In this document: piece by piece, positions 4,646 through 48,021 of the stretch
How positions within the stretch are numbered: position 1 is the stretch's first letter
Layout: every line of letters begins with the position of its first letter
From: Escherichia phage vB_Eco_CWW26
Sequence record: PQ900155.1
Reading direction: 5' to 3' (one strand)
Length of the DNA stretch: 48,021 bases
Program-made: the position numbers and the translations under genes
Notes under the pieces: generated by a model
Seen by the model: only the letters and a program-made list of their open reading frames with translations
Told to the model about the DNA's origin: nothing
Database searches by the model: none

Positions 4646-4674
4646 ACTCTACTCCATACTGACGAGGCCGTCAA
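4646..4674 (-). promoter_or_regulatory. sigma70-like promoter, palindromic -35 (leftward)
   Basis: Minus strand reads TTGACG-gcctcgtcagtatggag-TAGAGT (17-bp spacer); palindrome CTGACGAGGCCGTCAA at 4659-4674; about 40 bp upstream of ATG 4610. Confidence 0.55.
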
Positions 4675-7704: not shown

Positions 7705-7733
7705 ACTATGGCATACTCTGACGGACTCGTCAA
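7705..7733 (-). promoter_or_regulatory. sigma70-like promoter, palindromic -35 (leftward)
   Basis: Minus strand TTGACG-agtccgtcagagtatgc-CATAGT; palindrome CTGACGGACTCGTCAA at 7718-7733. Confidence 0.5.
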
Positions 7734-14824: not shown

Positions 14825-14853
14825 AGTATATCAATGATTGACGTACTCGTCAA
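14825..14853 (-). promoter_or_regulatory. sigma70-like promoter, palindromic -35 (leftward)
   Basis: Minus strand TTGACG-agtacgtcaatcattga-TATACT (17-bp spacer); palindrome TTGACGTACTCGTCAA 14838-14853 straddles the repeat boundary. Confidence 0.6.
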
Positions 14854-15143
14854 CACCTCATTTTACCCCGAAATACCCGAGCTATCGGGGTGGTGAATTT
14901 ACATTCACAATCATAGGTTTACGCGCATAACCGAAAACCCCGTACATTCTTCCCTTCTTCCTTCTTATAAACCTTATAAACTATACATTATGTATTATAC
15001 TACATTTATACTATATATTATATACTTTCTATTACTACTAATTACTATTTTATAAGGGTATAAGGGTAATAAGTAGTATAGTACTGAAAGGTAAAGAGTT
15101 TTTGATACCCCGATGAAGTACCCCGAACGACTTTCAACGGGGT
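14844..15143. repeat. 300-bp direct repeat, copy B
   Basis: Matches 1-300 by eye; flanks diverge immediately outside. Confidence 0.9.
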
Positions 15144-15198
15144 GTGTGGATACTGACGCAATGCTGTGTGATAATGTCTTGACAAACGAGGGCACACT

Positions 15199-16603: not shown

Positions 16604-17740
16604 ATGTCTTTTCCAGTTGAACAAATCATCCCAATCACGACCCGGATTTCTCCGGCGGGGTTAGGTACGGCAAACTTCGCTTCCGCGATGTTGTTTGCTA
16701 AAAACTCCGAACTCCCGAGCAGTTTCACCAAAGACACTGTTCGTACCTACTATTCCACCTCTTCTCTCGCCGCTGACTTTGCCCCTACGACTGAGACGTA
16801 CAAGGCTGGTGCCAAGTTCCTCGGCTCCACCCCCGCTGTACCGAAACTTACCGTGTGGGCTACCGCTGACGATGATGCCGATATCAAAGCAACGCTGACC
16901 AAAGCATTTGACAAGCATTACTGGTACTGGACACTTTTCACCAAAGACGTGCTGGCAACAGAGGCAAACGTATTGTCGATCGCATCCTGGTGTGAAGAGA
17001 ACAGCATCATGTTCCCGAACAGTCAGACTGGTGAGGCTGTGGTTAAAATTCGCAACCCTGACGCCAGCGATGACATCTGTTCACAGCTGAACACGCTGGG
17101 CTATCGTCACGCGTTTACCGTCGCTCACGCAACTGACCCATATGCGGCTTATGCGCTTATCAAGCATTCTGCTTCAGTCAATTACAGTGCTGACAACAGT
17201 ACCATTGATACCGAGTTCAAGAAATCTCCTGGTGTTGCTGCTGAAGACCTGTCCGACACCGAACAGAACGCGATGGTTGCCAAACGCTGCGCATTCTACA
17301 GTGTGCTCGACCTGCAAGGTAGCGCTGACAGTGGTCGCTGGTTACAGACGTGGTCGCACAGCACCTACGGTGAGTCTATTTCCGATATCGTCGATTTGGA
17401 TGCATTTGTGAACTCTCTGCGTGTGGAACTATACAACACCATCGTTAACCAGACCACCAAACTTCCGCAGACTCCTGTCGGTCAGGAAGCGCTCATTGGC
17501 GCCGCCAAACGTGTCGGTAAACAGTACATCCGTAACCGTTATCTCGGCCCGCGCAATTACACCAGTCCTGACACTGGTCTGGAAGCGTACACCGATGGCT
17601 TCGAAGTGCTGACTAAAGCGACGGATATTCTCGACTTGTCCGATTCTGACCGCGCGGCACGCAAGTCTGCACCGATTAACATGCGTGTGTTCAAAGCCGG
17701 CAGTATTCGCATCTGTGATGTCACCGTAGACGTTTATTAA
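16604..17740 (+). CDS. tail sheath-like protein (DUF3383-like, putative)
   Basis: 378-aa ORF followed by a 138-aa ORF, the sheath/tube arrangement; family from memory only. Confidence 0.45.
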   Translation: MSFPVEQIIPITTRISPAGLGTANFASAMLFAKNSELPSSFTKDTVRTYYSTSSLAADFAPTTETYKAGAKFLGSTPAVPKLTVWATADDDADIKATLTKAFDKHYWYWTLFTKDVLATEANVLSIASWCEENSIMFPNSQTGEAVVKIRNPDASDDICSQLNTLGYRHAFTVAHATDPYAAYALIKHSASVNYSADNSTIDTEFKKSPGVAAEDLSDTEQNAMVAKRCAFYSVLDLQGSADSGRWLQTWSHSTYGESISDIVDLDAFVNSLRVELYNTIVNQTTKLPQTPVGQEALIGAAKRVGKQYIRNRYLGPRNYTSPDTGLEAYTDGFEVLTKATDILDLSDSDRAARKSAPINMRVFKAGSIRICDVTVDVY

Positions 17741-17753
17741 TGGAGAATGACCG

Positions 17754-18170
17754 ATGTCATTAGAAAACTTTTCCACAAGTAACACGGTCATTACTATAAA
17801 TGGCCGAATCATTACTGATTTCGGGGAGTCTGACCCGCCGTACACTGACGAGCCGATTGACGCATCCACTGCGTTACGTCGTGGTCTCGGCGGTAACGCT
17901 ATTCGTCTGGACCGTATCAACCCGGGTCGTCGTGTCACGCTGAACCTCAACCCCGGCTCGGCTGACTCCGCGTATATTAACGGGCTGTTTCTGAGCAAGG
18001 CTAACATCGAGTTGACCTATACTCAGATTGGCACACTTGACGCCGCTGTTGGTGCAGAAGGTGTGATTGTGAACGATGGTCCGCGTGGGCGTGGTGGTCA
18101 GACAATTACCGATGACCAGTGGATTTTTGAGTTCAATTCATGGACTGCGTCAAAGGGTCCGGCAAGCTAA
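17754..18170 (+). CDS. tail tube-like protein (putative)
   Basis: 138-aa ORF after the sheath-like gene, followed by a bidirectional terminator. Confidence 0.45.
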   Translation: MSLENFSTSNTVITINGRIITDFGESDPPYTDEPIDASTALRRGLGGNAIRLDRINPGRRVTLNLNPGSADSAYINGLFLSKANIELTYTQIGTLDAAVGAEGVIVNDGPRGRGGQTITDDQWIFEFNSWTASKGPAS

Positions 18171-18174
18171 ACAA

Positions 18175-18194
18175 AAGGGGCCTGATGGCCCCTT
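18175..18194. terminator. bidirectional rho-independent terminator
   Basis: AAGGGGCC-TGAT-GGCCCCTT between convergent genes; T-rich on both sides. Confidence 0.65.
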
Positions 18195-18196
18195 AG

Positions 18197-18532
18197 TTAT
18201 TTCTGGTTGAGCATGGCGGTGCGGTAGGATTCATCCTCACCAAATATAGCCGCCTCCAGTACATCAATGGCTTGCGATGGTGAGTGTGAATATTTATCGA
18301 AGGTCGGACCTTTGATGAACTGTGCGATTTTGAACAGTCGTTTTTCTTGCGCGTGATACAAATCACTTAGTTTCTTATATCTCTCATCGGACTCACTATC
18401 CATCGTCGCCAGGAGCATTTTATACACCTGAAGATTGTATTCACCGTTCATCGATAGCTGACCTTGCTCATCTTTTATTTTGTACAGTCGGTCGATTTGT
18501 GTAATCAGGTTTTCTTTTGTCACTCTTCTCAT
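18197..18532 (-). CDS. hypothetical protein (111 aa)
   Basis: ORF track; second gene of a leftward two-gene cassette in the tail module. Confidence 0.45.
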   Translation of the reverse strand: MRRVTKENLITQIDRLYKIKDEQGQLSMNGEYNLQVYKMLLATMDSESDERYKKLSDLYHAQEKRLFKIAQFIKGPTFDKYSHSPSQAIDVLEAAIFGEDESYRTAMLNQK

Positions 18533-18777
18533 TTTCTTTTACTCCGAATGTGAAAGTCTGCTTTATCCATCATATCTTTACGCCAGCAAACGCCGGTACC
18601 CATATACGCCGGGTCGTCACTTTCCGCATAACCAAATTCATTTTCATGATACGTGCAAATCGTGTCGGTCTGTCCGTCATAAATCTGGAACTGATCACCT
18701 TGTGCAGCGTGGGCACCGCTGCAGTAAATTGTCGCAGCCATGATGACTGCTAACTGAATTTTAAATTTGTGAATCAT
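18529..18777 (-). CDS. small secreted protein with signal peptide
   Basis: MIHKFKIQLAVIMAATIYCSGAHA then mature part with 3 Cys; ATG at 18777 with AGGAGA SD. The ORF-track TTG at 18837 is the promoter -35. Confidence 0.5.
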   Translation of the reverse strand: MIHKFKIQLAVIMAATIYCSGAHAAQGDQFQIYDGQTDTICTYHENEFGYAESDDPAYMGTGVCWRKDMMDKADFHIRSKRK

Positions 18778-18808
18778 TTCTCTACTCTCCTGTTGTTCTG
18801 CTGAGGTA

Positions 18809-18837
18809 ACTATAACCCACCTTGACGAGTCCGTCAA
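18809..18837 (-). promoter_or_regulatory. sigma70-like promoter, palindromic -35 (leftward)
   Basis: Minus strand TTGACG-gactcgtcaaggtgggt-TATAGT; palindrome TTGACGAGTCCGTCAA 18822-18837. Confidence 0.6.
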
Positions 18838-18897
18838 TAATTGATTGATGATTTCGTCAGGGGTACACTGTAACGACTAACAACCGGAGAAATAAGA

Positions 18898-19272
18898 ATG
18901 TCACTCATTAAAACTTTTACCGCTGGCGACATCACCGTAAACGCCGCGATGCCTTCCGCAATCGAGCAGGACGAACTATTATCCCTGGTGAGCGCACAGT
19001 TTATCGCACATGCCGCCAACGTTTACAAAAACGGCGGCGAACTCGGTGTCAAAGATGTAACCCTGTTGCTCACTGCTGTACCGCATCACATCAAGCAACG
19101 TATTACCGATGTACTTCTGAGTAAAGCAATGACGGCTGGTACTAACACTAAAATCACAGTGAATGATTTCCCCGGTAAAATGATGACGCTAAACACTCTG
19201 CTGGCAGAATTGTTTCTGTGGGTTTATGCTGATTTTTTCGATTACGTGCAAAACGCAAACAAAGACGAGTAA
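18898..19272 (+). CDS. tail assembly chaperone (putative, zero-frame product)
   Basis: 124-aa ORF between tube and tape measure genes; slippery heptamer near its 3' end. Confidence 0.45.
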   Translation: MSLIKTFTAGDITVNAAMPSAIEQDELLSLVSAQFIAHAANVYKNGGELGVKDVTLLLTAVPHHIKQRITDVLLSKAMTAGTNTKITVNDFPGKMMTLNTLLAELFLWVYADFFDYVQNANKDE

Positions 19273-19481
19273 GGGACACCGGGCGACCCAGCCCGGTTAA
19301 CTGGTACTTTATGCGGGTTTGCACGGGTATCGAGGGAGTGTGCCCACCTCTTTGTACATGGGCGCAGTTAAAAGATGGTACAATATCGCTTGCTGAAGTC
19401 GAACAATTTCACTTTGCGATGGATGAATTGCAGGGTAAGTATATCGAGGCGATGAACAATGCAAGAAATTCCCCTAAATAA
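18898..19481 (+). CDS. tail chaperone frameshift fusion product (putative, ~194 aa)
   Basis: Predicted product of a -1 shift at 19233-19239; the extension begins RLRAKRKQRRVR. Confidence 0.3.
19233..19239 (+). other. candidate -1 programmed frameshift site T_TTT_TTC
   Basis: Canonical X_XXY_YYZ heptamer 11 codons before the chaperone stop; the -1 frame is open for 80 further codons to TAA at 19479-19481. Confidence 0.4.
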
Positions 19482-19755
19482 TGGCGCGGCTAACGCTCAT
19501 CAGACTTTCACGGTTAAGCTGGGTGACAACGTTCTCGACTTTGCGCTGGATTACATCAGCTATACCGACAAGCCCGCGTGGACAATGACTGTCTCACAGG
19601 ATGGTATCAACTACATCACCGGTGCAATGCTTGTCCCAAATGCTGAGGTCAGCAAAGCATACCGCGCCGGACTGGGTCGTTTTTTCTTTGTGGGCGATGA
19701 GGTAACCATCGACAACCTCGGCGTTGATAACCATCTTCTGTGGGTGCCCGAATAA
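19459..19755 (+). CDS. hypothetical tail protein (98 aa)
   Basis: ORF track; stop overlaps the tape measure ATG (TAATG). Confidence 0.4.
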   Translation: MQEIPLNNGAANAHQTFTVKLGDNVLDFALDYISYTDKPAWTMTVSQDGINYITGAMLVPNAEVSKAYRAGLGRFFFVGDEVTIDNLGVDNHLLWVPE

Positions 19756-21092
19756 TGGCTAATGTGATTACGCAGTTTCTGGTCGGTCTCGGCATCTCTT
19801 ACGATGGTAAAGGTGCTGAACAGGCTGAAAAAGATATCGACAACCTCGGCAAATCGGCGGAGCAAGCCGGTAGTCGGATGGACGATGTCGGCAAGTCCCT
19901 CGACCAGGGTGTTAAAACCGGTGTAGAAAATTCAAAATCACGCATCATGAGTCTGGTCGCTACGTTCAAAGGAGCAGGACTTGCGATGTCCGGTGTTGCT
20001 GCGGGTGTCGGCGCAGCGTGGGCGTTTGAGTCGAAGAAAGCGCAACAGGCTTACGACCTGAACAACCAGCTTGCAACCAGTCAGTTCGGACCAACTGAGG
20101 TTTACGGACTTGGTGCACTGGCTGAACAGCGTGGCGGCGACCGGCAAGCAACAACAAACAGCCTTTTAAATATTGAGCGTGGAATTAACCGCATTCAGAC
20201 CGGTGACGCCGGGATGATTCAACAACTGGCGGTCGCAGGAATCCGTGTCGATAACCCTACGGGGCGTACACGCGAAGATATTTACAGCGACATCGCCGGA
20301 CAGTTCCAGCACCTCGATACGACGCGTCAGAGCAACGTAGCGGATATTTTAGGTCTCGACCCGGCTACCGTCAGAGTATGGCAGGAGTTCGGCACTACAA
20401 CGCTGGAAGTGTCAAAAGCCCGTGCCGCTGAACTGGGTTACACCGAGAAACATAATGCAGCACTGGATGCAATCAATCAGACCATAATTGACACGCAACA
20501 GAAAATGGAAGGACTGGGTAACACTATTGCAGATGTTCTCGCACCCAGTATTAAAACCTTGTCCGATAGTTTCCTGTCTGCTGCCACGGGTTTTACAAAC
20601 TGGCTGAAAGCACACCCTGATTTACCGACGGATATCGTAAGTGGTAACTGGTATGATAAGTATATTGTTGGTAGTGCCAATAATACAGCGGAGTGGATCA
20701 AGGAGAAAACAGGATTCGATACCCGTGATATTGGGAGGTCTTTTAGCGCCGAGAATAATCCACCAAAACCAGATTACGACTACACCAGGAAGCCAGAAGA
20801 TAAACCACAACAATCATTTGTGTGGCAGCAACCACAGCAGGAGAATATCATCTCCAACGACGGTTCATACGGTGCCGAAGCAAGCCCGGTAACGAACAAT
20901 TACGCGCAGCAAAGCCAGCAGATGAGTCAGATTATGGAGTCCATAAACCGTCCGATTCAGCTTAACGGTAATTTTACCACACAGGGCGACGTGATACTGG
21001 ACGGTAATGCGATTGGTCGTTATACCGTGAATCATCTTGAGACGCAGGTGTATCCACAGGCGATTGACCAGACCCGGCAAAGGAGTTACTGA
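19755..21092 (+). CDS. tape measure protein (putative, short)
   Basis: 445 aa; Ala/Gly-rich hydrophobic segment GLAMSGVAAGVGAAW; position after chaperone genes. Confidence 0.45.
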   Translation: MANVITQFLVGLGISYDGKGAEQAEKDIDNLGKSAEQAGSRMDDVGKSLDQGVKTGVENSKSRIMSLVATFKGAGLAMSGVAAGVGAAWAFESKKAQQAYDLNNQLATSQFGPTEVYGLGALAEQRGGDRQATTNSLLNIERGINRIQTGDAGMIQQLAVAGIRVDNPTGRTREDIYSDIAGQFQHLDTTRQSNVADILGLDPATVRVWQEFGTTTLEVSKARAAELGYTEKHNAALDAINQTIIDTQQKMEGLGNTIADVLAPSIKTLSDSFLSAATGFTNWLKAHPDLPTDIVSGNWYDKYIVGSANNTAEWIKEKTGFDTRDIGRSFSAENNPPKPDYDYTRKPEDKPQQSFVWQQPQQENIISNDGSYGAEASPVTNNYAQQSQQMSQIMESINRPIQLNGNFTTQGDVILDGNAIGRYTVNHLETQVYPQAIDQTRQRSY

Positions 21093-21094
21093 TA

Positions 21095-22519
21095 ATGGAT
21101 TTGCGCCAGTATGAGATACTCATTGATACAAAGAATTTCATCACTCAGTCGTACCCGATGCTCCGGTGCTCGTTCGATGTAACAACGTATACCGGCGACA
21201 GTCTGAGTACCTGTGAGTTTCGCTTGTGGAACCTCGCACCGACAACGAAGATTGAACCTAATCAGACCGTTGTTTTTCGCGCCGGGTATCAGTCGCGCAT
21301 GGGTCAGATTTTTACTGGATTTGTTACCAACGTTTTCACTATTCGTGACGGTACTGACATTATTACACGTGTGACGTGTCGCAGCGGTAGCAACGTGCTC
21401 GACGGTGGGACAACGAGTGCAAGTTTCGGTAAGGGGGTGACATTGTTTGACGTCCTGACCAGCCTCGCACAGGACTGGTCAAAACCGCTATATCTTGTCA
21501 ATAGCGTGGACAAATTTACCTCTATTGTCATGGTTAGCGGCTACAACGTCAGCTCCGACATTAGTAAAGAACTCGATATTCTGGCCAAAGCGTATGGCTT
21601 CGAATGGCATCTGTACGCTGGACAGGTGTTTGTCGGATTCCCGTCTGATGACCGTAAAGCCACACCTGTTAAAATCAGTTCCGCCACCGGGATGATTGAT
21701 GCTCCCACGCTTCACGGCGGTATTGATGGTGTATTCTGTGACGTTAAAATGCGTCTTGACCCCCGTATGACACCCGCATCGGTGCTCAATATCGAGTCAA
21801 AATGGCCTAAATTCGATTTCGGAGCAGTGGAGTTCCAGACAACCGTCGACGCTAAACTGGAAGGTGACTGGAACGTTCAGACCATTCAACACACTGGCGA
21901 TACACATGGTCCCGACTGGTACACATTTGTCAAAGCTGTGCGCGCCGGGTCAATGGATACCACCACGGCAAATGCTGACGTTGGTAATCGTCTTATTTAC
22001 GGTCGCGTGGGTGTGCAGGGTGAGGATGCCAGTCAGCAACAGGATTTCCGTACTGAGGTGCGTAAACTTGGGCAAAGTCTGGGTATCAGTCCTAACTGGA
22101 TTATGGCTGTAATCTCTGCCGAGTCTAACTTCAATCCACAGTCAAAGAACAGCAAATCCGGCGCGGTAGGACTGATTCAGTTTACTAATGCCGGTTGGAC
22201 GAGTGCGTTTCAGAGTAAGTACGGTCGCAATAAAAATATCATCCTGTCAATGACTGCAGCCGAACAGGTGAGGGGTCCGATTACTGATTATCTCAATCAA
22301 TATAAAGGGCGTTACAAGACAATGGGGGATGTATACATGGCGGTATTCAGTCCGGCATTTATCGGTAAACCTTCAACAACCGTGATGTACACGTCACCGT
22401 CCAAAGCGTACAATCAGAATGCAGGGCTTGACACGGAGCATAAAGGTTACATTACTGTCGGTGACGTGTGGCGGCGTGTTGAGGAACGATTCAGACAAGG
22501 TAAGGCGTACATGTTATGA
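21095..22519 (+). CDS. tail protein with lytic transglycosylase (SLT) domain
   Basis: C-terminal AVISAESNFNPQSKNSKSGAVGLIQFTNAGW matches the SLT signature (E-S...GLMQ). Confidence 0.55.
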   Translation: MDLRQYEILIDTKNFITQSYPMLRCSFDVTTYTGDSLSTCEFRLWNLAPTTKIEPNQTVVFRAGYQSRMGQIFTGFVTNVFTIRDGTDIITRVTCRSGSNVLDGGTTSASFGKGVTLFDVLTSLAQDWSKPLYLVNSVDKFTSIVMVSGYNVSSDISKELDILAKAYGFEWHLYAGQVFVGFPSDDRKATPVKISSATGMIDAPTLHGGIDGVFCDVKMRLDPRMTPASVLNIESKWPKFDFGAVEFQTTVDAKLEGDWNVQTIQHTGDTHGPDWYTFVKAVRAGSMDTTTANADVGNRLIYGRVGVQGEDASQQQDFRTEVRKLGQSLGISPNWIMAVISAESNFNPQSKNSKSGAVGLIQFTNAGWTSAFQSKYGRNKNIILSMTAAEQVRGPITDYLNQYKGRYKTMGDVYMAVFSPAFIGKPSTTVMYTSPSKAYNQNAGLDTEHKGYITVGDVWRRVEERFRQGKAYML

Positions 22520-23166
22520 GTTTAATTAACCTTCTGGTAAAGCGCGGTCCACAGCTTGGGTCGCTTCAGTTCGATGCCGTCCTGTCTGATGACCTTGATG
22601 CCAGCGTGGATATCGTGCAGTACCCCATTGAGACAGGTACGCCAATTGCAGACCACATTATCTATCAGCCTATTCGTTACACGATGACAGGTGCAGTATC
22701 GAACAACCCGTTGAAAGTTAGTATCACCGATTTCACCGGGGCATTGACAAATCTTGTCGATGACAATCCGTTCATTGCAGCGGGTGCCGGTCTGTTCGCG
22801 GGGTGGTTGAGCGGCTCAAATGAAACTCGCTCCAGTACGACACTGAATACTTTGCTCGATTTCATGTACTCCGGTCAGGTATTCACAGTGGATACGGGCG
22901 AAATTACGCTGAACAATATGGTCATTCAGCGTATTGGGCGCTCTAAAGACCCGGAGAATGAGAACGGATTGATATTTGTTGCTGAACTACAGCAGATTGT
23001 CACGCTTGACCGCGTGGCGAACGGTTCACAACCGGCACAATATCAGCTGAACAGTAACGACGTTTCCAGCACGTCCATATCAGGACTGATTGAGCGTGGT
23101 TATATCAATGTGAAGACAGCTGCAACGAATGTTGCCGACCAGGTTACGACACTTTTGGATTTGTAA
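22516..23166 (+). CDS. hypothetical tail / baseplate hub protein
   Basis: ORF track; last gene before the non-coding island. Confidence 0.4.
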   Translation: MSLINLLVKRGPQLGSLQFDAVLSDDLDASVDIVQYPIETGTPIADHIIYQPIRYTMTGAVSNNPLKVSITDFTGALTNLVDDNPFIAAGAGLFAGWLSGSNETRSSTTLNTLLDFMYSGQVFTVDTGEITLNNMVIQRIGRSKDPENENGLIFVAELQQIVTLDRVANGSQPAQYQLNSNDVSSTSISGLIERGYINVKTAATNVADQVTTLLDL

Positions 23167-28729: not shown

Positions 28730-29587
28730 ATGGCTTTAGACCGCAGCAACCGTTACCCGGGAAGGTTTGAGAATCCCACAACTGTATCACCCCAGGGAGC
28801 ATTTAAAAACCGCACATCACCAACGGCGGAAGATGGTTCGTATTTCGAGGCTGACTGGGCCAATGACTGGGATGGTTTTTTTGCTCGCATCCTCAACGTG
28901 GCGGGTGTTACGCCAAATGGAACCGTCGATAACGGTACGTCGAGCCAGCTTTACGACGCACTCATGACTGCCACACCGGGTCGGTTGTTGAATGTGCGTA
29001 CACTCACATCGTCTGGGATTTATACCCCGACAACAGGTACGAAGGCCATTAAGGTGACTCTCACCGGTGGTGGTGGCGGTGGTGGTGGTTGTCAGGCAAC
29101 TAGTACATCCGATACGTTCTCTGGTGCCGGTGGTGGCGCAGGTGGGACTGTTGTCGCCTGGATTACTTCCCCAGCGTCGTCATACTCTGTAACGATTGGT
29201 GCTGGTGGTGCCGGCGGCGTGGGTGCAAACGCGGGTTCTGCTGGTGGAAACAGTGTATTCGGCACACTAACAGCGGGTGGTGGTGGTGGTGGTCTGAAAT
29301 CATCTGTTACGTCCACGCCAGGTGGTTTGAGTGGTACAGCAACCGGCGGCCTAATAAACATTCGTGGTGGTGATGGTAGTGATGGTCAGAACGGTACGTA
29401 TTTCGTCACCGGTAACGGTGGGTCATCCTTCTGGGGCGGTGGCGGTCGTGCCGGTGCGTTAGGTGGGGTTACCGGGAAAGCCCCTGGTAGTGGTGGCGGC
29501 GGTGCATATGATGTTGGTGTGAGTGGTACATCATACACCGGTGGAGCGGGTGCTGCCGGTATCGTAATGATTGAGGAATACTCATAA
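28730..29587 (+). CDS. Gly-rich tail fiber protein
   Basis: Glycine runs (TGGGGGGGGC, GAGGGAGG, GGGGGGL) after a fiber-like N-terminus. Confidence 0.5.
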   Translation: MALDRSNRYPGRFENPTTVSPQGAFKNRTSPTAEDGSYFEADWANDWDGFFARILNVAGVTPNGTVDNGTSSQLYDALMTATPGRLLNVRTLTSSGIYTPTTGTKAIKVTLTGGGGGGGGCQATSTSDTFSGAGGGAGGTVVAWITSPASSYSVTIGAGGAGGVGANAGSAGGNSVFGTLTAGGGGGGLKSSVTSTPGGLSGTATGGLINIRGGDGSDGQNGTYFVTGNGGSSFWGGGGRAGALGGVTGKAPGSGGGGAYDVGVSGTSYTGGAGAAGIVMIEEYS

Positions 29588-29818
29588 GGTTTTACAACCT
29601 TCCCACCAGTTTTGCCACCGGGACACTCTGTCCCGGTCGGACATCAGAACTTCCCCGTTATGTGGAATTACCGTAGCGGCTCGTTCAGGGTCGCCATTAA
29701 TCGTCCACAATTCACCACTCGGCGTAAGCAGGTCGTTAGATGGCGGCGGACATTTGCGTACTTCCTGAGTACACGCGGCTAAAGTAAGTACAGATATCAG
29801 CAGGATAAGTTTTTTCAT
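29582..29818 (-). CDS. o-spanin (Rz1-like outer-membrane lipoprotein)
   Basis: Signal peptide with lipobox LTLAAC; proline-rich mature part; ATGA overlap with i-spanin. Confidence 0.6.
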   Translation of the reverse strand: MKKLILLISVLTLAACTQEVRKCPPPSNDLLTPSGELWTINGDPERAATVIPHNGEVLMSDRDRVSRWQNWWEGCKTL

Positions 29819-30129
29819 TTTACAGTCGCATCATACAGGTCGAGGATACCGCTTTCTTTGACACACTGAGCGGTGGCGGAGTCTTTGATTCGGTCACGGT
29901 AGATGGCGACTTTTTCAACGACTTTTTTGGAACGAGCTTCTTTCAGTTCCTGTTGCTTTTTCTGCAATTCCACATCGGAAGCATTGAGTTTTTCTTGTAG
30001 CGCATTACGGGCTTCAACGACTGTCTTATATTCTTTGAAATCGTCCAACTTGACCGACTGCTTCCCTTGTGAATATCCCCACCAGAACGCCAGCGCAAGC
30101 AACACAAGTGCTGGTATAATTGTGCGCAT
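29815..30129 (-). CDS. i-spanin (Rz-like)
   Basis: N-terminal TM helix IIPALVLLALAFWWGY, then a charged coiled-coil region; start overlaps endolysin stop. Confidence 0.6.
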   Translation of the reverse strand: MRTIIPALVLLALAFWWGYSQGKQSVKLDDFKEYKTVVEARNALQEKLNASDVELQKKQQELKEARSKKVVEKVAIYRDRIKDSATAQCVKESGILDLYDATVK

Positions 30130-30671
30130 CATTTCTCCCCCAGTGTATACAGGCACAAATACTCTTCCTGCTCCCGACGAATTGGCTGCCCGGAACAGTT
30201 GTTGCTTTTGATACGGCAGTCTTTACCGCCATCAAAAACCCAACGTGGAATCTGTTTACACGCATTCTTCCAGTCGCCTTTTTGCAGTAACTTAAAGAAT
30301 GTTGACCCCTTACATTTGGTAGGTCCAATGTTGTACGGGCAGAACGATGCAATACCGACCTGTTGCACCGGGTTCAGTTTTACCGGAATATTCTCACGTA
30401 CCCATTCGAGTGACTTCTGCGCTTCCTTATCGTTCAGAAGGTCACATTGCTTTTCGGTAAGTCGCATACCCTTTGTGACTGGTTTACCATCAATGCGTGT
30501 GATTCCACGACAGATGGTCCAGATACCTTTACCGTCCCGGTACGCAGTGGTGCGGTTACCTTCCTTCTCGTTCAGGAACTGGTTGAACAGGTCCGTCTGC
30601 GTGACTACTCCCCCCCCTAATGCAAATACTGCCAGGAGTGCCGTCATTTGCTTACTTAAAGGATTTTTCAT
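30129..30671 (-). CDS. SAR endolysin (GH24 / T4-lysozyme-like)
   Basis: Catalytic signature EKEGNRTTAYRDGKGIWTICRGI; N-terminal Gly/Ala-rich weakly hydrophobic segment TALLAVFALGGGVV typical of a signal-anchor-release domain. Confidence 0.7.
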   Translation of the reverse strand: MKNPLSKQMTALLAVFALGGGVVTQTDLFNQFLNEKEGNRTTAYRDGKGIWTICRGITRIDGKPVTKGMRLTEKQCDLLNDKEAQKSLEWVRENIPVKLNPVQQVGIASFCPYNIGPTKCKGSTFFKLLQKGDWKNACKQIPRWVFDGGKDCRIKSNNCSGQPIRREQEEYLCLYTLGEK

Positions 30672-30725
30672 TTTGTTACACTCGTTGTACAATTAAGCTT
30701 AATCCTAACATATAAAGGCGACAAA

Positions 30726-30836
30726 ATGTACAAGACTAAACCACGTAAAGCAGGTGACGCCGGTGGGACATGTGTTAAACCCCGTGGTAAAACAGGTGAC
30801 GCGGGCGGTTCCAAAGTAAAACGCCGGACCAAATAA
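30726..30836 (+). CDS. small basic Gly-rich peptide (36 aa, putative)
   Basis: Hand-translated MYKTKPRKAGDAGGTCVKPRGKTGDAGGSKVKRRTK with internal repeat K(A/T)GDAGG; weak SD. Confidence 0.2.
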   Translation: MYKTKPRKAGDAGGTCVKPRGKTGDAGGSKVKRRTK

Positions 30837-30839
30837 ACA

Positions 30840-31250
30840 ATGTACACCTTCCTGATTGCCTCGCTAATCGTCAGACCCCGGAGAGCCTCGTTTCTCTTCG
30901 TGCTGGTGGCAACTCTCTTTCAGGAGTTATGTGGTAATATGGATGGTTCGATTTATTTTTTCCTCGCCGCATTTTGTGATTTCATCGTAGCCGGTGTTCT
31001 GTACCATTTTGGAACATCCCGAAAGTCTCTCGACATGATGCTCATCAGCATTGTTTCCATGTCGATCAATCTGACAGGCTGGCTCCTGTGGTTTTTCTAT
31101 CAACCGCTCGATGTCTATGTGGCAATGTTCACGGTGCTGTACTGTGCGGCAATCCTCACGATACTGAAAAAGGATAGTGACGATGCTGGAGGTATTGCGG
31201 TTCATATCGACAACTCTGGTCATCATCCTTATGCTGGCGCAGGTCGTTGA
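30840..31250 (+). CDS. integral membrane protein (3-4 TM; holin or exclusion candidate)
   Basis: Several hydrophobic helices; divergent from the lysis cassette. Confidence 0.4.
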   Translation: MYTFLIASLIVRPRRASFLFVLVATLFQELCGNMDGSIYFFLAAFCDFIVAGVLYHFGTSRKSLDMMLISIVSMSINLTGWLLWFFYQPLDVYVAMFTVLYCAAILTILKKDSDDAGGIAVHIDNSGHHPYAGAGR

Positions 31251-31276
31251 GTGGTATATCAAAGCGAGAAAACATT

Positions 31277-31558
31277 ATGAGCTTTACCGGAAACACACAA
31301 GCCGGAACGGTAGTAGCAAGCGGAACGACGGTAACGGGTCTAATGACTAAGTACGGTATCACCCCGGAAACCATCGGTATCTTCGCAACATTAGTGGGTA
31401 TCGTACTTTCTCTGGTGATGATTTACGGTCACATCAAGCGTATCAGAAATGAATCGGCGGAACGCAAGGAAAAGGAAGCCATTGCGAGAATTGAAAAGGA
31501 AAAGGCAGAGATTGAACTTGCTGAAATGCGCCGAAGGATGAACAACCCGGCGCAGTGA
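31277..31558 (+). CDS. holin-like protein (one TM helix, charged C-terminal tail)
   Basis: TM IGIFATLVGIVLSLVMIYG followed by KRIRNESAERKEKEAIARIEKEKAEIELAEMRRR; start ambiguous (TTG 31247 or ATG 31277). Confidence 0.4.
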   Translation: MSFTGNTQAGTVVASGTTVTGLMTKYGITPETIGIFATLVGIVLSLVMIYGHIKRIRNESAERKEKEAIARIEKEKAEIELAEMRRRMNNPAQ

Positions 31559-35822: not shown

Positions 35823-35851
35823 ATACTACGTTGGTTTGACGAGTACGTCAA
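35823..35851 (-). promoter_or_regulatory. sigma70-like promoter, palindromic -35 (leftward)
   Basis: Minus strand TTGACG-tactcgtcaaaccaacg-TAGTAT; palindrome TTGACGAGTACGTCAA 35836-35851; 5'UTR hairpin GGGAGAC-N5-GTCTCCC. Confidence 0.55.
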
Positions 35852-38654: not shown

Positions 38655-38683
38655 ACTCTATATCACCATGACGCAACCGTCAA
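38655..38683 (-). promoter_or_regulatory. sigma70-like promoter, palindromic -35 (leftward)
   Basis: Minus strand TTGACG-gttgcgtcatggtgata-TAGAGT; + strand palindrome ATGACGCAACCGTCAA 38668-38683. Confidence 0.5.
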
Positions 38684-41721: not shown

Positions 41722-41996
41722 TGGCTGTTATTACACTTGAGCAAATTATCGAACTTCAATATCGAAGACACAACAACGTGTCGAATCAACAATTCAAACA
41801 ACTTAACGGAAAATATTCTTCCAGAGGTTTGAGAAATGCGCACCGTTACGCCGATATTGAGCGCCACAAATGTTGGCCACGCGGTAAAACTTATTACCGT
41901 CTCTACCGTCGCCAGATGAATCCACACATCAACTTTACTGTTTCACCGGGTCATCCGGACAGATATAAACACATGTCGTTGCGGATGTGGAGTTGA
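41718..41996 (+). CDS. hypothetical basic protein (92 aa)
   Basis: ORF track; ATGA overlap with VRR-NUC gene. Confidence 0.4.
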   Translation: MMAVITLEQIIELQYRRHNNVSNQQFKQLNGKYSSRGLRNAHRYADIERHKCWPRGKTYYRLYRRQMNPHINFTVSPGHPDRYKHMSLRMWS

Positions 41997-42050
41997 CCAC
42001 TCCGTCAACCTGTGCCATACTGCAACAAATTACCTAATGGAACCGAACTC

Positions 42051-42329
42051 ATGAGCAAAGAGCATATTTTAGAAGTAGCTTACACGATGGCACAGCGCGA
42101 CGGCTTTGGTACTCTTACCCGCGATGGTGTCGCTGCCGAGGCTGGTGTGGCGATGGGAAGCGTTAACCATCACTGGGGTAAGATGTCCGCACTTCGTGAA
42201 GCAGTGATGCAACGGGCGGTAGAAGAAGAAAACCTCGAATTGATTGGGCAGGGGATGGCGCTGGGTGATAGCGTTGCCAAATCCGCCCCACTGGAGCTAC
42301 GCACACGCGCGTTGACAACCCTGCTTTAA
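42051..42329 (+). CDS. small HTH protein (TetR-type N-terminal HTH, no ligand domain)
   Basis: SKEHILEVAYTMAQRDGFGTLTRDGVAAEAGVAMGSVNHHWGKMSALREAV fits the TetR HTH pattern; ATG at 42051 (ORF-track frame 42012). Confidence 0.45.
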   Translation: MSKEHILEVAYTMAQRDGFGTLTRDGVAAEAGVAMGSVNHHWGKMSALREAVMQRAVEEENLELIGQGMALGDSVAKSAPLELRTRALTTLL

Positions 42330-44745: not shown

Positions 44746-44774
44746 TTGACGAGTTCGTCAATGGGGAGTATAGT
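44746..44774 (+). promoter_or_regulatory. sigma70-like promoter, palindromic -35 (rightward)
   Basis: TTGACG-agttcgtcaatggggag-TATAGT (17-bp spacer); palindrome TTGACGAGTTCGTCAA 44746-44761; about 30 bp upstream of ATG 44805. Confidence 0.65.
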
Positions 44775-45130: not shown

Positions 45131-45333
45131 GTTATTGTCAGCTGATGGAGCGCATGTTAGCGGCTGAAGCGCGGGTGGTGGAACTGGAGAAATATAAAGC
45201 TGCATTTATAACGTGGCAAGACAAAACAGAATGGGTACAGAAGGATTCACGCTTTGACATTTTATTACCCTGGGGTAAACATCGCGCGGACGTACTGAAA
45301 GAGTACATTGAATTGCTGGAGCGTAAACCATGA
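45112..45333 (+). CDS. hypothetical protein (73 aa)
   Basis: ORF track; coupled (ATGA) to downstream gene. Confidence 0.4.
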   Translation: MDMETLSYCQLMERMLAAEARVVELEKYKAAFITWQDKTEWVQKDSRFDILLPWGKHRADVLKEYIELLERKP

Positions 45334-45626
45334 TTAAATATTTACCACTTGTAGCGCTCCTGGTGGGCGCTCAGGTTAACGCAGCTGTTACTGCTGAAAC
45401 AAATGAGTCACAGGTTGCTAACCTGCTCTTTAACGGCTGTAGCGCTCAACGTGCACAAATGGGCGTACAGGAAATTATTAAACAGGCTAACCCCGGCGGC
45501 AATCCAGCAGTGACTGACCTTATCATCAAAGGTTACAAGTTCGGCATTGATTACCCGAACGTCGGATGTAACCAGTTCTTCACGGTTGTCATTGACCAGT
45601 TAGTTAAAAGCCGGAGTAAAGCGTAA
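45330..45626 (+). CDS. small secreted / periplasmic protein with signal peptide
   Basis: MIKYLPLVALLVGAQVNAAVTAE signal-peptide-like N-terminus; two Cys in mature part. Confidence 0.45.
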   Translation: MIKYLPLVALLVGAQVNAAVTAETNESQVANLLFNGCSAQRAQMGVQEIIKQANPGGNPAVTDLIIKGYKFGIDYPNVGCNQFFTVVIDQLVKSRSKA

Positions 45627-45961: not shown

Positions 45962-47096
45962 ATTGACAGACGAACAATTGATTACGGATGTCACATCTGG
46001 AATGAGTGGTCACGCTATTGCGAGAAAGTATGGTATGACCCCCGGCAACATTAACCGCCGCATCAAACGTCTCGGTGCGCGCGGTCTTGGTCACGGTGGT
46101 GATGTGTCTCGCTTTGTGCCGGACGGTTACAAGGTGAAAGGTACATCATCACTGGTGAAGGAGGATGGGACTGTAGCGCTACAATGGGTTAAAACCGACG
46201 TAGACGCCGAGCGTCAGCTGAAAATGATGCAGGAAGCGATTGTGGCACTTACAGAGTGCTTATCCCCACTAGAGGAAATCAATTTAATATCCCATGATGA
46301 GGATAGCACTCTCCTGAACATGTACACAGTAACAGATGCACACATTGGTATGTTGGCATGTGAAGAAGAGGGTGGAGACGATTACGACACCAATATCGCG
46401 GAACATCTCATATCATCGTGGTTCAAATCAGCGACAACATTGGCACCCAATGCAACAGAATGCCTCATTAACCTTCAGGGGGATTTCCTGCACTTCGACG
46501 GACTGAAGGCAGTTACACCAACATCCGGACACATTCTCGACTCTGATACGCGTTTCTTCAAAGTGGTACAGACTGCTATCCGCGTGATTAAACGAGCCGT
46601 GAATATGTGTCTGGAGAAGCATCGGAAAGTGACGCTGCTAATCGCCACTGGTAACCATGACCTCGCGTCCGCCGTGTGGTTGCGAGAGATGTTTAAAGAG
46701 GTGTATTGCGGTAATCCCCGCGTGACCATTGTAGACGAACAAAGTCCCTACTACGCAATCGAATTCGGTAAAGTGATGATTGGTGTCCATCACGGGCATT
46801 GTTCCAGAATGGAAAAGTTGGACGCAGTATTTGCCAGTAAGTTCCGGGAGATTTATGGCCGTACTAAGTTCGGCTACCTACACATGGGACACTATCATCA
46901 TCGGAAAGTGTCAGAGAGCAACATGTTCGTTACCGAGATGCACCAAACTCTGGCGGCCAAAGACGAGTATTCAAGTAACGGAGGTTACGACTCCGGAAGA
47001 AGCGCCACTGTCATAACATATCATCGAGACTATGGTGAGATTGGCAGAATATCAATTCCCGTAGAGATGATTAAGGACCAGTATGGACTGGAATAG
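45954..47096 (+). CDS. HTH domain fused to calcineurin-like metallophosphoesterase (putative)
   Basis: N-terminal HTH-like SGHAIARKYGMTPGNINRRIKRLG; ordered phosphoesterase motifs VTDAHIG, LQGDFLHFDG, IATGNHD, GVHHGH, GHYHH; GAGGTGA SD before ATG 45954. Confidence 0.45.
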   Translation: MIRLTDEQLITDVTSGMSGHAIARKYGMTPGNINRRIKRLGARGLGHGGDVSRFVPDGYKVKGTSSLVKEDGTVALQWVKTDVDAERQLKMMQEAIVALTECLSPLEEINLISHDEDSTLLNMYTVTDAHIGMLACEEEGGDDYDTNIAEHLISSWFKSATTLAPNATECLINLQGDFLHFDGLKAVTPTSGHILDSDTRFFKVVQTAIRVIKRAVNMCLEKHRKVTLLIATGNHDLASAVWLREMFKEVYCGNPRVTIVDEQSPYYAIEFGKVMIGVHHGHCSRMEKLDAVFASKFREIYGRTKFGYLHMGHYHHRKVSESNMFVTEMHQTLAAKDEYSSNGGYDSGRSATVITYHRDYGEIGRISIPVEMIKDQYGLE

Positions 47097-47111
47097 TATC
47101 AGGTAAATAAA

Positions 47112-47138
47112 AGGCCCGCATTTAGCGGGCTTTGTTTT
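47112..47138. terminator. bidirectional rho-independent terminator
   Basis: GCCCGC-ATTTA-GCGGGC followed by TTTGTTTT; T-rich on the minus side too; between convergent genes. Confidence 0.7.
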
Positions 47139-47316
47139 ATCCAAGTGGAAATTTTTTATCAATCCATTCGTTCATCCTAATTCTCAATCTCTTCACGGAG
47201 TAACTCCAGTCATCGGCCTTATTTAGTATCGACTCAACAACTAAAATAATAATGAATACAGGTAGTACGATTATCCTTCCTGTGAGACTTTTCTTACTCA
47301 TCTTGTGCCATTGCAT
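47137..47316 (-). CDS. small membrane protein (59 aa, putative)
   Basis: ATG at 47316 (MQWHKMSKK...) with GGAAGA SD; TM IIVLPVFIIILVVESIL; within ORF-track frame 47137..47484. Confidence 0.35.
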   Translation of the reverse strand: MQWHKMSKKSLTGRIIVLPVFIIILVVESILNKADDWSYSVKRLRIRMNEWIDKKFPLG

Positions 47317-47320
47317 TTTA

Positions 47321-47899
47321 TTATCTTCCACAGTTGCGGCATTCACCATTTGCCACATAACGTTCCGCAATAATATTACAATGCTTGCAAGGCTCATACG
47401 GAATATACCAGCGTTTGCCGTCAGCGATGGCCTGCTGGCGCGGTGATTTAATTTTAATGACTCCAACGTGAATTCCCGATTCACTCAGTAACAGGGCGTT
47501 TTTCATCGTCTCCAACTGTTCATTTAAAACAGAAATATTATGCTCAATCATGGCGATGTTTTCACGCAGTGCATCGACCTCACCAGCGGTGTCAACAATG
47601 GCTGCTTTTGGTTTTTTCCATTCCCCCGTCATGCGTTGTTCGGTTAAGCAGAAGACACATTTACCAGCAGTGTTACGGACGCCCGGATGTCCACATTCAC
47701 TGTTCGGTTTCTTCTGTACTCTCCACGAGCGACCATCATTAAGACCGTCGAGAACTTTTTGATAGAGTTCGTTGCGTGCAGGAAGACCCATGTTTTTCGC
47801 TTTCACAAAATCATGATGGTCATGAAGTGCACAAATACTACACAATTCTGTTTCTTTAAATTTTGTAGTGCCGTGACAATTATCTATAAGATGAATCAT
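47321..47899 (-). CDS. Cys-rich zinc-finger protein (192 aa)
   Basis: Three CxxC-type clusters (C-x8-C-x2-C; C-x11-C-x2-C; C-x2-C-x12-C-x2-C) and a central coiled-coil-like region; first gene downstream of the repeat-associated leftward promoter. Confidence 0.45.
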   Translation of the reverse strand: MIHLIDNCHGTTKFKETELCSICALHDHHDFVKAKNMGLPARNELYQKVLDGLNDGRSWRVQKKPNSECGHPGVRNTAGKCVFCLTEQRMTGEWKKPKAAIVDTAGEVDALRENIAMIEHNISVLNEQLETMKNALLLSESGIHVGVIKIKSPRQQAIADGKRWYIPYEPCKHCNIIAERYVANGECRNCGR

Positions 47900-47924: not shown

Positions 47925-47954
47925 ACTATAAAATAATAGAGAATTACTCGTCAA
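47925..47954 (-). promoter_or_regulatory. sigma70-like promoter, half-palindrome -35 at repeat boundary (leftward)
   Basis: Minus strand TTGACG-N18-TATAGT; -35 is the first 10 nt of repeat copy C; the second half-site is absent here. Confidence 0.45.
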
Positions 47955-48021
47955 CACCTCATTTTACCCCGAAATACCCGAGCTATCGGGGTGGTGAATT
48001 TACATTCACAATCATAGGTTT
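47945..48021. repeat. start of 300-bp repeat (wrap-around copy of 1-77)
   Basis: 47945-48021 matches 1-77 by eye; implies a 47,944-bp circular or permuted unit. Confidence 0.9.

Follow-up and report, generated by a model that had tools for sequence, protein, structure and literature searches.

A conserved tail-module gene of Escherichia phage vB_Eco_CWW26 and other Jedunaviruses encodes a predicted exported protein, a possible early superinfection-exclusion factor

The genome of Escherichia phage vB_Eco_CWW26 (record PQ900155.1; 48,021 base pairs [bp], analysed at full length and referred to here as the window) carries a leftward two-gene unit, gp39-gp38, inside its tail module. The first gene of this unit, gp39, encodes a small, predicted exported protein that nearly all close relatives in the genus Jedunavirus have kept. 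We tentatively interpret gp39 as an early periplasmic factor that excludes superinfecting phages or protects the envelope, a reading to which we give slightly less than an even chance. It is based on the predicted export of the protein, the non-structural class of its promoter, its dispensability combined with purifying selection, a theme of envelope proteins at its position and plasmid homologues located beside defence genes. A role in superinfection exclusion or at the host envelope had been proposed in a first-pass annotation made from the sequence alone; this proposal stays plausible and is the best-supported guess at function.

The unit is flanked by the sheath and tube genes (16604-18170) on one side and by the chaperone gene (18898 onward) on the other, with the baseplate-plug (Pam3_gp18-like) and tape-measure genes following the chaperone. 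On the minus strand, gp39 (18529-18777) encodes a precursor of 82 amino acids (aa) and gp38 (18197-18532) a protein of 111 aa. Both genes are coding sequences in record NC_071140, and they overlap by the sequence ATGA (18529-18532), through which gp38 is likely translationally coupled to gp39. Transcription is predicted to start from a sigma-70-type promoter (18809-18837, minus strand) with a TTGACG -35 element, a 17-nucleotide (nt) spacer and a TATAGT -10 element (10 of 12 consensus positions; kept in relatives). A ribosome-binding site, GGAGAG (18785-18790, minus strand), lies within a leader (…ACAACAGGAGAG…) common to other units of the same promoter family. At the distal end, a hairpin with an 8-bp G+C-rich stem (18175-18194) is a predicted terminator common to the leftward unit and the rightward tube gene: its folding energy is about -17 kcal/mol on each strand (z-scores of -2.8 and -2.3), and the tail following it is a good U-tract on the minus strand (UUUUGUUU) and weaker on the plus strand. 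No Rfam match to an RNA family was obtained in 17500-19600. The G+C content of the unit is 42–44%, versus 52% in the flanking tail genes. The parts listed in the first-pass annotation are thus all found where it placed them: the leftward promoter (with the support of the palindrome family described below), the small Cys-containing protein whose predicted signal peptide ends in AHA, the 111-aa second protein and the bidirectional terminator, the last with the weaker plus-strand tail. A 102-aa reading of gp39 from a TTG at 18837 was rejected, as its start would fall inside the -35 element and relatives keep the ATG at 18777 together with its ribosome-binding site.

To place the unit among relatives, we compared the slot between tube and chaperone genes in the 70 phage records whose tube proteins reach at least 90% identity. 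gp39 occupies this slot in 66 of the 70. The slot is filled in essentially all Jedunaviruses and ranges in length from 394 bp, when it holds gp39 alone (loci L009 and L011), to 5,007 bp (28 loci). Further cargo is varied: Rha/KilAC and AntA/KilAC proteins; a 482-aa protein with a DUF723 match above threshold and weaker zinc-finger and restriction endonuclease matches, which looks like a homing endonuclease by these domains; a 158-aa protein labelled 'peptidase HslV family' in some records, with no Pfam match; and small proteins with two hydrophobic segments, which by eye are membrane proteins. In phage MMNM/MEW1 (L007, MT894004), the first ~40 nt of gp39 are left, broken by a stop codon, and the slot holds AntA/KilAC, Rha/KilAC and a 60-aa protein with two hydrophobic segments (by eye a membrane protein). 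As this phage is viable with only a remnant of the gene, gp39 is dispensable. We saw no relatives carrying these genes as virion components: in MMNM, the sole relative for which a virion proteome was available, none of the slot genes is among the 25 virion proteins identified by mass spectrometry (PMC8269216, Table S4), a dataset outside which gp39 itself falls, having been lost in MMNM.

Similar arrangements extend beyond the genus. A more distant phage carries a protein 51% identical to gp39 (P0176) in this slot, and Vibrio phage VchM-138 has three leftward slot genes, including one for a 39-aa two-Cys peptide that is predicted to be secreted. In approximately 239 related Vibrio phage records, the slot contains a leftward gene for an Imm_superinfect protein (E = 5e-9; 36.3 bits versus a cutoff of 27.9 for the Pfam family); in the one locus inspected, this gene is the promoter-proximal one. 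The slot gene of Pantoea phage AAM22 is rightward and annotated with a MUG113 domain, and in Edwardsiella phage PEi21 the tube and chaperone genes are adjacent. The structural module of the window itself holds at least four further leftward islands. These comparisons do not bear out the earlier description of the insertion as atypical, nor does gene order among relatives reveal a sporadic one: gp39 is lineage-wide, and only the second position of the unit, here gp38, appears to be exchangeable cargo. gp39 behaves as a conserved anchor gene, and the slot as a recombination hotspot around one constant gene.

A simple promoter scan found sites in this region to be no commoner than in shuffled sequence. 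The promoter at 18837-18809 is nevertheless credible because of the conservation of a palindrome, the excess of that palindrome in the genome and the excess of a composite motif containing it. The palindrome, TTGACG-N4-CGTCAA (18822-18837), is perfect, covers the -35 element and is a possible operator; its arms do not vary among the relatives that have an intergenic region of this type, and the four central bases do. An imperfect second copy facing the chaperone gene (18845-18860), 7 bp upstream of the first, departs from the palindrome at two positions in the window and at one in most relatives. With up to two mismatches allowed, the palindrome occurs 16 times in the genome versus 3.3 ± 1.8 times in shuffles. 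The composite motif (palindrome, 7–8 nt and a TATAGT-like hexamer) occurs eight times versus 0.01 expected; this pattern was refined on the same data, making the palindrome count the fairer test.

Six of the composite sites are on the minus strand (4646-4674, 7705-7733, 14825-14853, 18809-18837, 35823-35851 and 38655-38683) and two are on the plus strand (41993-42021 and 44746-44774). All eight head non-structural units. Four of these are leftward islands (4.6, 7.7, 14.8 and 18.8 kb) and two are leftward replication units (35.8 and 38.7 kb); the other two run rightward (42.0 and 44.7 kb). A similar leader with a ribosome-binding site (…ACAACAGAGAGG…ATG) comes after each site. Because its promoter belongs to this recurrent family, the gp39-gp38 unit appears to be part of the phage's own sigma-70-type programme rather than to have brought in a foreign promoter. 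Judging from promoter type, the unit is presumably transcribed early, and early palindrome-promoter islands interspersed among late genes would be the general picture for Jedunaviruses. The presence of the palindrome at these promoters suggests that a dimeric regulator may bind there. A 92-aa protein with a TetR-type helix-turn-helix (42051-42329, plus strand; PF00440, E = 1.7e-7) is itself preceded by a palindrome promoter; it is a speculative candidate for the palindrome binder.

The gp39 precursor begins MIHKFKIQLAVIMAATIYCSGAHA, followed by AQGD. This predicted signal peptide (residues 1–24; 18706-18777, minus strand) can be divided into an n-region (MIHKFK), a hydrophobic core (IQLAVIMAATIY) and a c-region (CSGAHA) ahead of AQG. 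Signal peptides were recognized by a positive n-region, a hydrophobic core of 7–15 residues and small residues at -3 and -1; gp39 has an n-region charge of +2, a core of 12–14 residues and A-H-A at -3 to -1. It has a single hydrophobic segment, which is N-terminal. The same n/h/c layout is found in 13 of 13 diverse family members checked, with leader sequences that are otherwise unrelated: distant members have canonical but unrelated leaders, such as MKKSIAVIALGLFSLSASA followed by AQ, directly ahead of the conserved domain. gp39 is therefore predicted to be exported via the Sec pathway and cut by signal peptidase I after AHA. A lipobox (L-[AS]-[GA]-C) is not conserved in the family: the gp39 leader reads T-I-Y-C, with Tyr at -1, and the leader Cys is absent from P0040, P0043, P0175, P0167, P0171 and P0177. 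Without a conserved lipobox, gp39 is therefore not expected to be a lipoprotein.

The gp39 family is small. There are 43 close homologues, and profile searches gave 49 members among 5.8 billion proteins and 13 proteins among 1.8 billion representatives. Distant members include P0164, P0175 and P0176 (77–80 aa) and the two-domain proteins P0167, P0171 and P0177 (142–157 aa), and two Cys residues are invariant throughout the family. gp39 matches PHROG 31975 (function unknown) over residues 1–82 (E = 6e-55), but neither gp39 nor gp38 has a match in Pfam (E <= 0.1), NCBIfam, PADLOC or the sequences of the Protein Data Bank (PDB). Identity across the genus is at least 79%. Among 22 distinct Jedunavirus alleles, the ratio of nonsynonymous to synonymous polymorphism (pN/pS) of the mature protein is 0.10 at a pS of 0.36, indicating strong purifying selection; in the leader, which falls into three length classes (24, 32 and 36 aa), it is 0.35.

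The mature domain (58 aa; 18532-18705, minus strand) was modelled with AlphaFold2 at a mean predicted local distance difference test score (pLDDT) of 84.3, using the mature domain and a more diverse alignment; an earlier model of the full precursor with a shallow alignment was unusable (pLDDT 53.7). Three beta-strands followed by a C-terminal helix are predicted, and the domain, with its two Cys, is probably disulfide-bonded. The model has no significant structural neighbour and matches no known fold. The profile search of the 1.8 billion representatives also brought up large Gram-positive surface proteins, which were rejected as homologues. In these, 5–8 repeats each match profile positions ~36–67 only, which is half of the domain and lacks the cysteines, and we read the matches as a common beta-hairpin motif summed over repeats rather than homology. 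We take the repeats, from their sequence, to be of the Cna-B/SpaA type.

Outside phages, two-domain homologues with their own signal peptide (142–157 aa, including that of L031) are found on Yersinia kristensenii plasmid contigs (L034/L035) and on Yersinia ruckeri pWKY (L046), where the gene for the 142-aa homologue is at 839-1267 of NZ_CP025801.1. One conjugative-plasmid homologue follows an AbiQ/ToxN toxin gene (E = 2e-54) at a distance of 21 bp, and another follows a PDC-S06 candidate defence gene (E = 2e-248) at 240 bp. A third, on a 369-kb plasmid-like metagenome contig (L031), is near genes for ParB, a DNA methyltransferase and Antirestrict (ArdA-type); we read the ArdA-containing region as a plasmid leading region. 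PADLOC matches were limited to these plasmid neighbours, AbiQ and PDC-S06, and the homologues P0171 and P0177 themselves had none.

If gp39 is an exclusion factor, the unit may work as follows. Host RNA polymerase would start an early leftward transcript at the palindrome promoter, inside the late tail module, and this transcript would end at the hairpin behind the tube gene. The 82-aa precursor would be exported by Sec and cut after AHA, and the 58-aa product would be retained in the periplasm, where it would block either a post-adsorption step of later phages (cell-wall penetration or DNA transfer) or lysis from without. gp38, translationally coupled to gp39, would be made as an exchangeable cytoplasmic cargo. 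The tail hub, gp43, carries an SLT cell-wall-cleaving domain; by analogy with T4 Spackle, inhibition of such an incoming activity by gp39 is an attractive possibility. More broadly, the 58-aa domain might be a previously unrecognized exported exclusion module shared by virulent Jedunaviruses and conjugative plasmids and acting on incoming genome-delivery machinery, an extension that we regard as conceivable but doubtful.

Several points weigh against assigning gp39 to exclusion. The functional argument is built on position and neighbourhood, and the early timing is drawn solely from the type of promoter. The Imm_superinfect protein of the Vibrio phages is a membrane protein unrelated to gp39. 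There are only three plasmid-type contexts, and in one of these (L031) the homologue is not beside a defence gene. The level of gp39 identity across the genus would fit a conserved target, and would fit equally well a housekeeping role in the phage's own cycle.

Alternatively, gp39 might time lysis from the periplasm, either like an antiholin or as a brake on a signal-anchored endolysin that prevents premature lysis. We consider this unlikely. The architecture of gp39 is the same as that of T4 RI, a small early protein in which an N-terminal export signal precedes a short periplasmic domain, and the strong conservation of gp39 fits a phage-internal target. The endolysin gp56 has, in addition to a Phage_lysozyme domain, an N-terminal hydrophobic segment typical of signal-anchor-release endolysins, so that a periplasmic partner is conceivable. 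However, the lysis cassette (29582-31558) is 11 kb away from gp39 and already encodes the endolysin, an inner-membrane spanin, an outer-membrane lipoprotein spanin (with an LTLAAC lipobox) and two divergently transcribed membrane proteins (136 and 93 aa) that are likely the holin or antiholin, although not so annotated. With this complete-looking set at 29.6–31.6 kb, a holin or antiholin was set aside as the primary reading of gp39. The loss of gp39 in MMNM also argues against lysis timing, as do the plasmid homologues, which are beside anti-phage genes without a lysis context, and the Vibrio positional analogue, which is an immunity protein rather than a lysis protein. An action on the host envelope for the benefit of the phage, such as receptor masking, a change to the capsule or outer membrane or neutralization of an envelope-associated defence, is likewise improbable in our assessment. 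It would be consistent with the predicted export signal and early-type promoter, with the non-essential nature of gp39 and with its place inside the tail module, where the receptor-masking genes of T5-like and T1-like phages are also located. Yet gp39 is predicted not to be a lipoprotein, there being no conserved lipobox and no leader Cys in several members; it is nearly invariant across phages reported to differ in capsule (K) type, which would mean that it does not co-vary with receptor specificity; and the defence-gene neighbours of its plasmid homologues suggest protection of the carrier cell.

The first-pass annotation had called the unit a two-gene moron. Its autonomous promoter-genes-terminator anatomy agrees with that description, as do its G+C content, below that of its flanks, the adjacency of tube and chaperone genes in phage PEi21 and the C-terminal module of gp38, which is common to temperate Salmonella and enterobacterial prophages. 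In the strict sense of horizontally acquired lysogenic-conversion genes expressed from a prophage, the term is very improbable here: the annotation of the 48-kb genome lists no integrase, repressor or excisionase, Jedunavirus phages are called lytic in papers on the genus, the promoter is of the phage's own recurrent type, and gp39 is lineage-wide and limited to these phages and a few plasmids. We would be equally surprised if gp39 or gp38 were a virion or tail-assembly component. Such a role is hinted at by the position between tube and chaperone genes and by the genus-wide retention of gp39, but the opposite strand and early-type promoter argue against it, and a cleavable export signal, if functional as predicted, is incompatible with cytoplasmic tail assembly. 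Moreover, MMNM builds virions without gp39 and without incorporating its slot gene products among the 25 proteins detected, and gp38 is replaced by unrelated genes in relatives.

Should gp39 prove to be an exclusion factor, the consequences would be both practical and general. Jedunaviruses are widely isolated as therapeutic Klebsiella phages, and a conserved exported blocker of later infections would affect their behaviour in cocktails and could explain cross-exclusion between cocktail members. As the family is tiny, unannotated and lacking a detectable structural relative, a demonstrated function would define a new periplasmic exclusion domain that conjugative plasmids use as well.

The second gene, gp38, is a mosaic, and is swapped for unrelated genes in relatives. 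Its N-terminal module (residues 1–47; 18392-18532, minus strand) is also the N-terminus of many Jedunavirus slot proteins with differing C-termini; PHROG 10200 and 9023 match residues 1–50. The C-terminal module (residues 48–111; 18197-18391, minus strand) is 65–89% identical to segments of 150–190 aa prophage proteins from Klebsiella, Enterobacter, Salmonella and others, and also matches Salmonella phage proteins annotated 'EaA'. In a lambdoid prophage, one homologue (P0070) is encoded between the xis/int genes and the gene for a cI-like repressor, and by sequence gp38 appears to be related to the early-left accessory proteins of lambdoid prophages. RefSeq labels gp38 a 'DUF551 domain-containing protein', but we found no match to DUF551 (PF04448) at E <= 0.1. 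Some gp38 homologues have DUF551, only as an extra C-terminal module, and the label appears to have been transferred from these relatives. Other product names in the public records seem to be weak transfers as well, including 'tetracycline resistance leader peptide' and 'NADH-ubiquinone oxidoreductase chain 3' (the latter for a 36-aa open reading frame [ORF]); only the gp38 label was checked against Pfam.

The window differs from the public record of the Jedunavirus Escherichia phage ZCEC13 (NC_071140/ON086804; 48,021 bp) by 249 substitutions in total, which are confined to 18541-22548 (186) and 46016-47462 (63). The first patch begins just within gp39 and extends across the chaperone gene and the genes for the tape measure and the hub; no difference from the record is seen in gp38 or in the tube gene. 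Both patches look like recombinant blocks from the distribution of substitutions. We found no published study of gp39, and the papers that mention ZCEC13 are not about that phage. A conserved 56-aa ORF (19311-19481, plus strand; PHROG 4364, E = 4e-18; weak DUF6889) lies after the chaperone gene, ahead of the structural gene that follows; it is annotated in KpV52 and Geezett but absent from the RefSeq annotation of ZCEC13. A 98-aa protein encoded in the rightward early region (45330-45626, plus strand) has a signal-peptide-like N-terminus (MIKYLPLVALLVGAQVNA followed by A) and no Pfam match; its 'transketolase' label in the record looks spurious. A 306-bp segment at 1-306 is 99.7% identical to 14844-15149, and the first 77 bp (1-77) recur at the end of the record (47944-48021). 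These repeats may represent a terminal repeat, a real duplication or an assembly artefact.

With respect to known systems, the closest parallels to gp39 are in phage T4. Spackle (Sp) has a cleaved signal peptide and acts in the periplasm against incoming tail lysozyme. Like Spackle and Imm, gp39 would be a small early envelope-acting product of a virulent myovirus, if its timing and site are as we propose. The likeness to Spackle extends to the ZCEC13-type hub, gp43, which also has a cell-wall-cleaving domain (SLT), and the likeness to Imm extends to the Imm-family gene in the equivalent slot of related Vibrio phages. In neither sequence nor fold does gp39 resemble Spackle or any solved structure, its two-Cys domain being predicted to form three beta-strands and one helix. 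It also differs from Imm_superinfect (PF14373), which has two membrane helices: gp39 has one N-terminal hydrophobic segment and no Pfam match at E <= 0.1. In phage T5, Llp masks the receptor, which spares progeny from being trapped on debris of lysed cells. Both Llp and Cor (of T1/phi80-type phages) are small exported proteins that are encoded among tail genes and guard the infected cell or the progeny, as gp39 is proposed to be; these are lipoproteins, whereas gp39 lacks a conserved lipobox and is expected to be cleaved by signal peptidase I.

The unit as a whole shares several features with the morons of temperate phages: its own promoter and terminator, a lower G+C content, an opposite orientation within the tail operon and a place between two genes that lie side by side in the distant phage PEi21, although that slot is filled in all Jedunaviruses and in related Vibrio phages. 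It differs from them in having a virulent host phage, a promoter from a phage-wide family and, as its first gene, a conserved gene of the lineage rather than a sporadic import. For gp38, the relevant comparison is with Lambda Ea22 and the P22 Ea-type proteins, in which a short conserved N-terminal segment is followed by swappable C-terminal modules, a mosaic design described for Ea22 (PMC10834534). Homologues of gp38 are encoded in the equivalent early-left region, between repressor and integrase genes, but gp38 itself matches no Pfam family, DUF551 included. Taken together, and with early timing and export as predicted, the locus belongs to a familiar kind: the early envelope-directed accessory genes of virulent phages.
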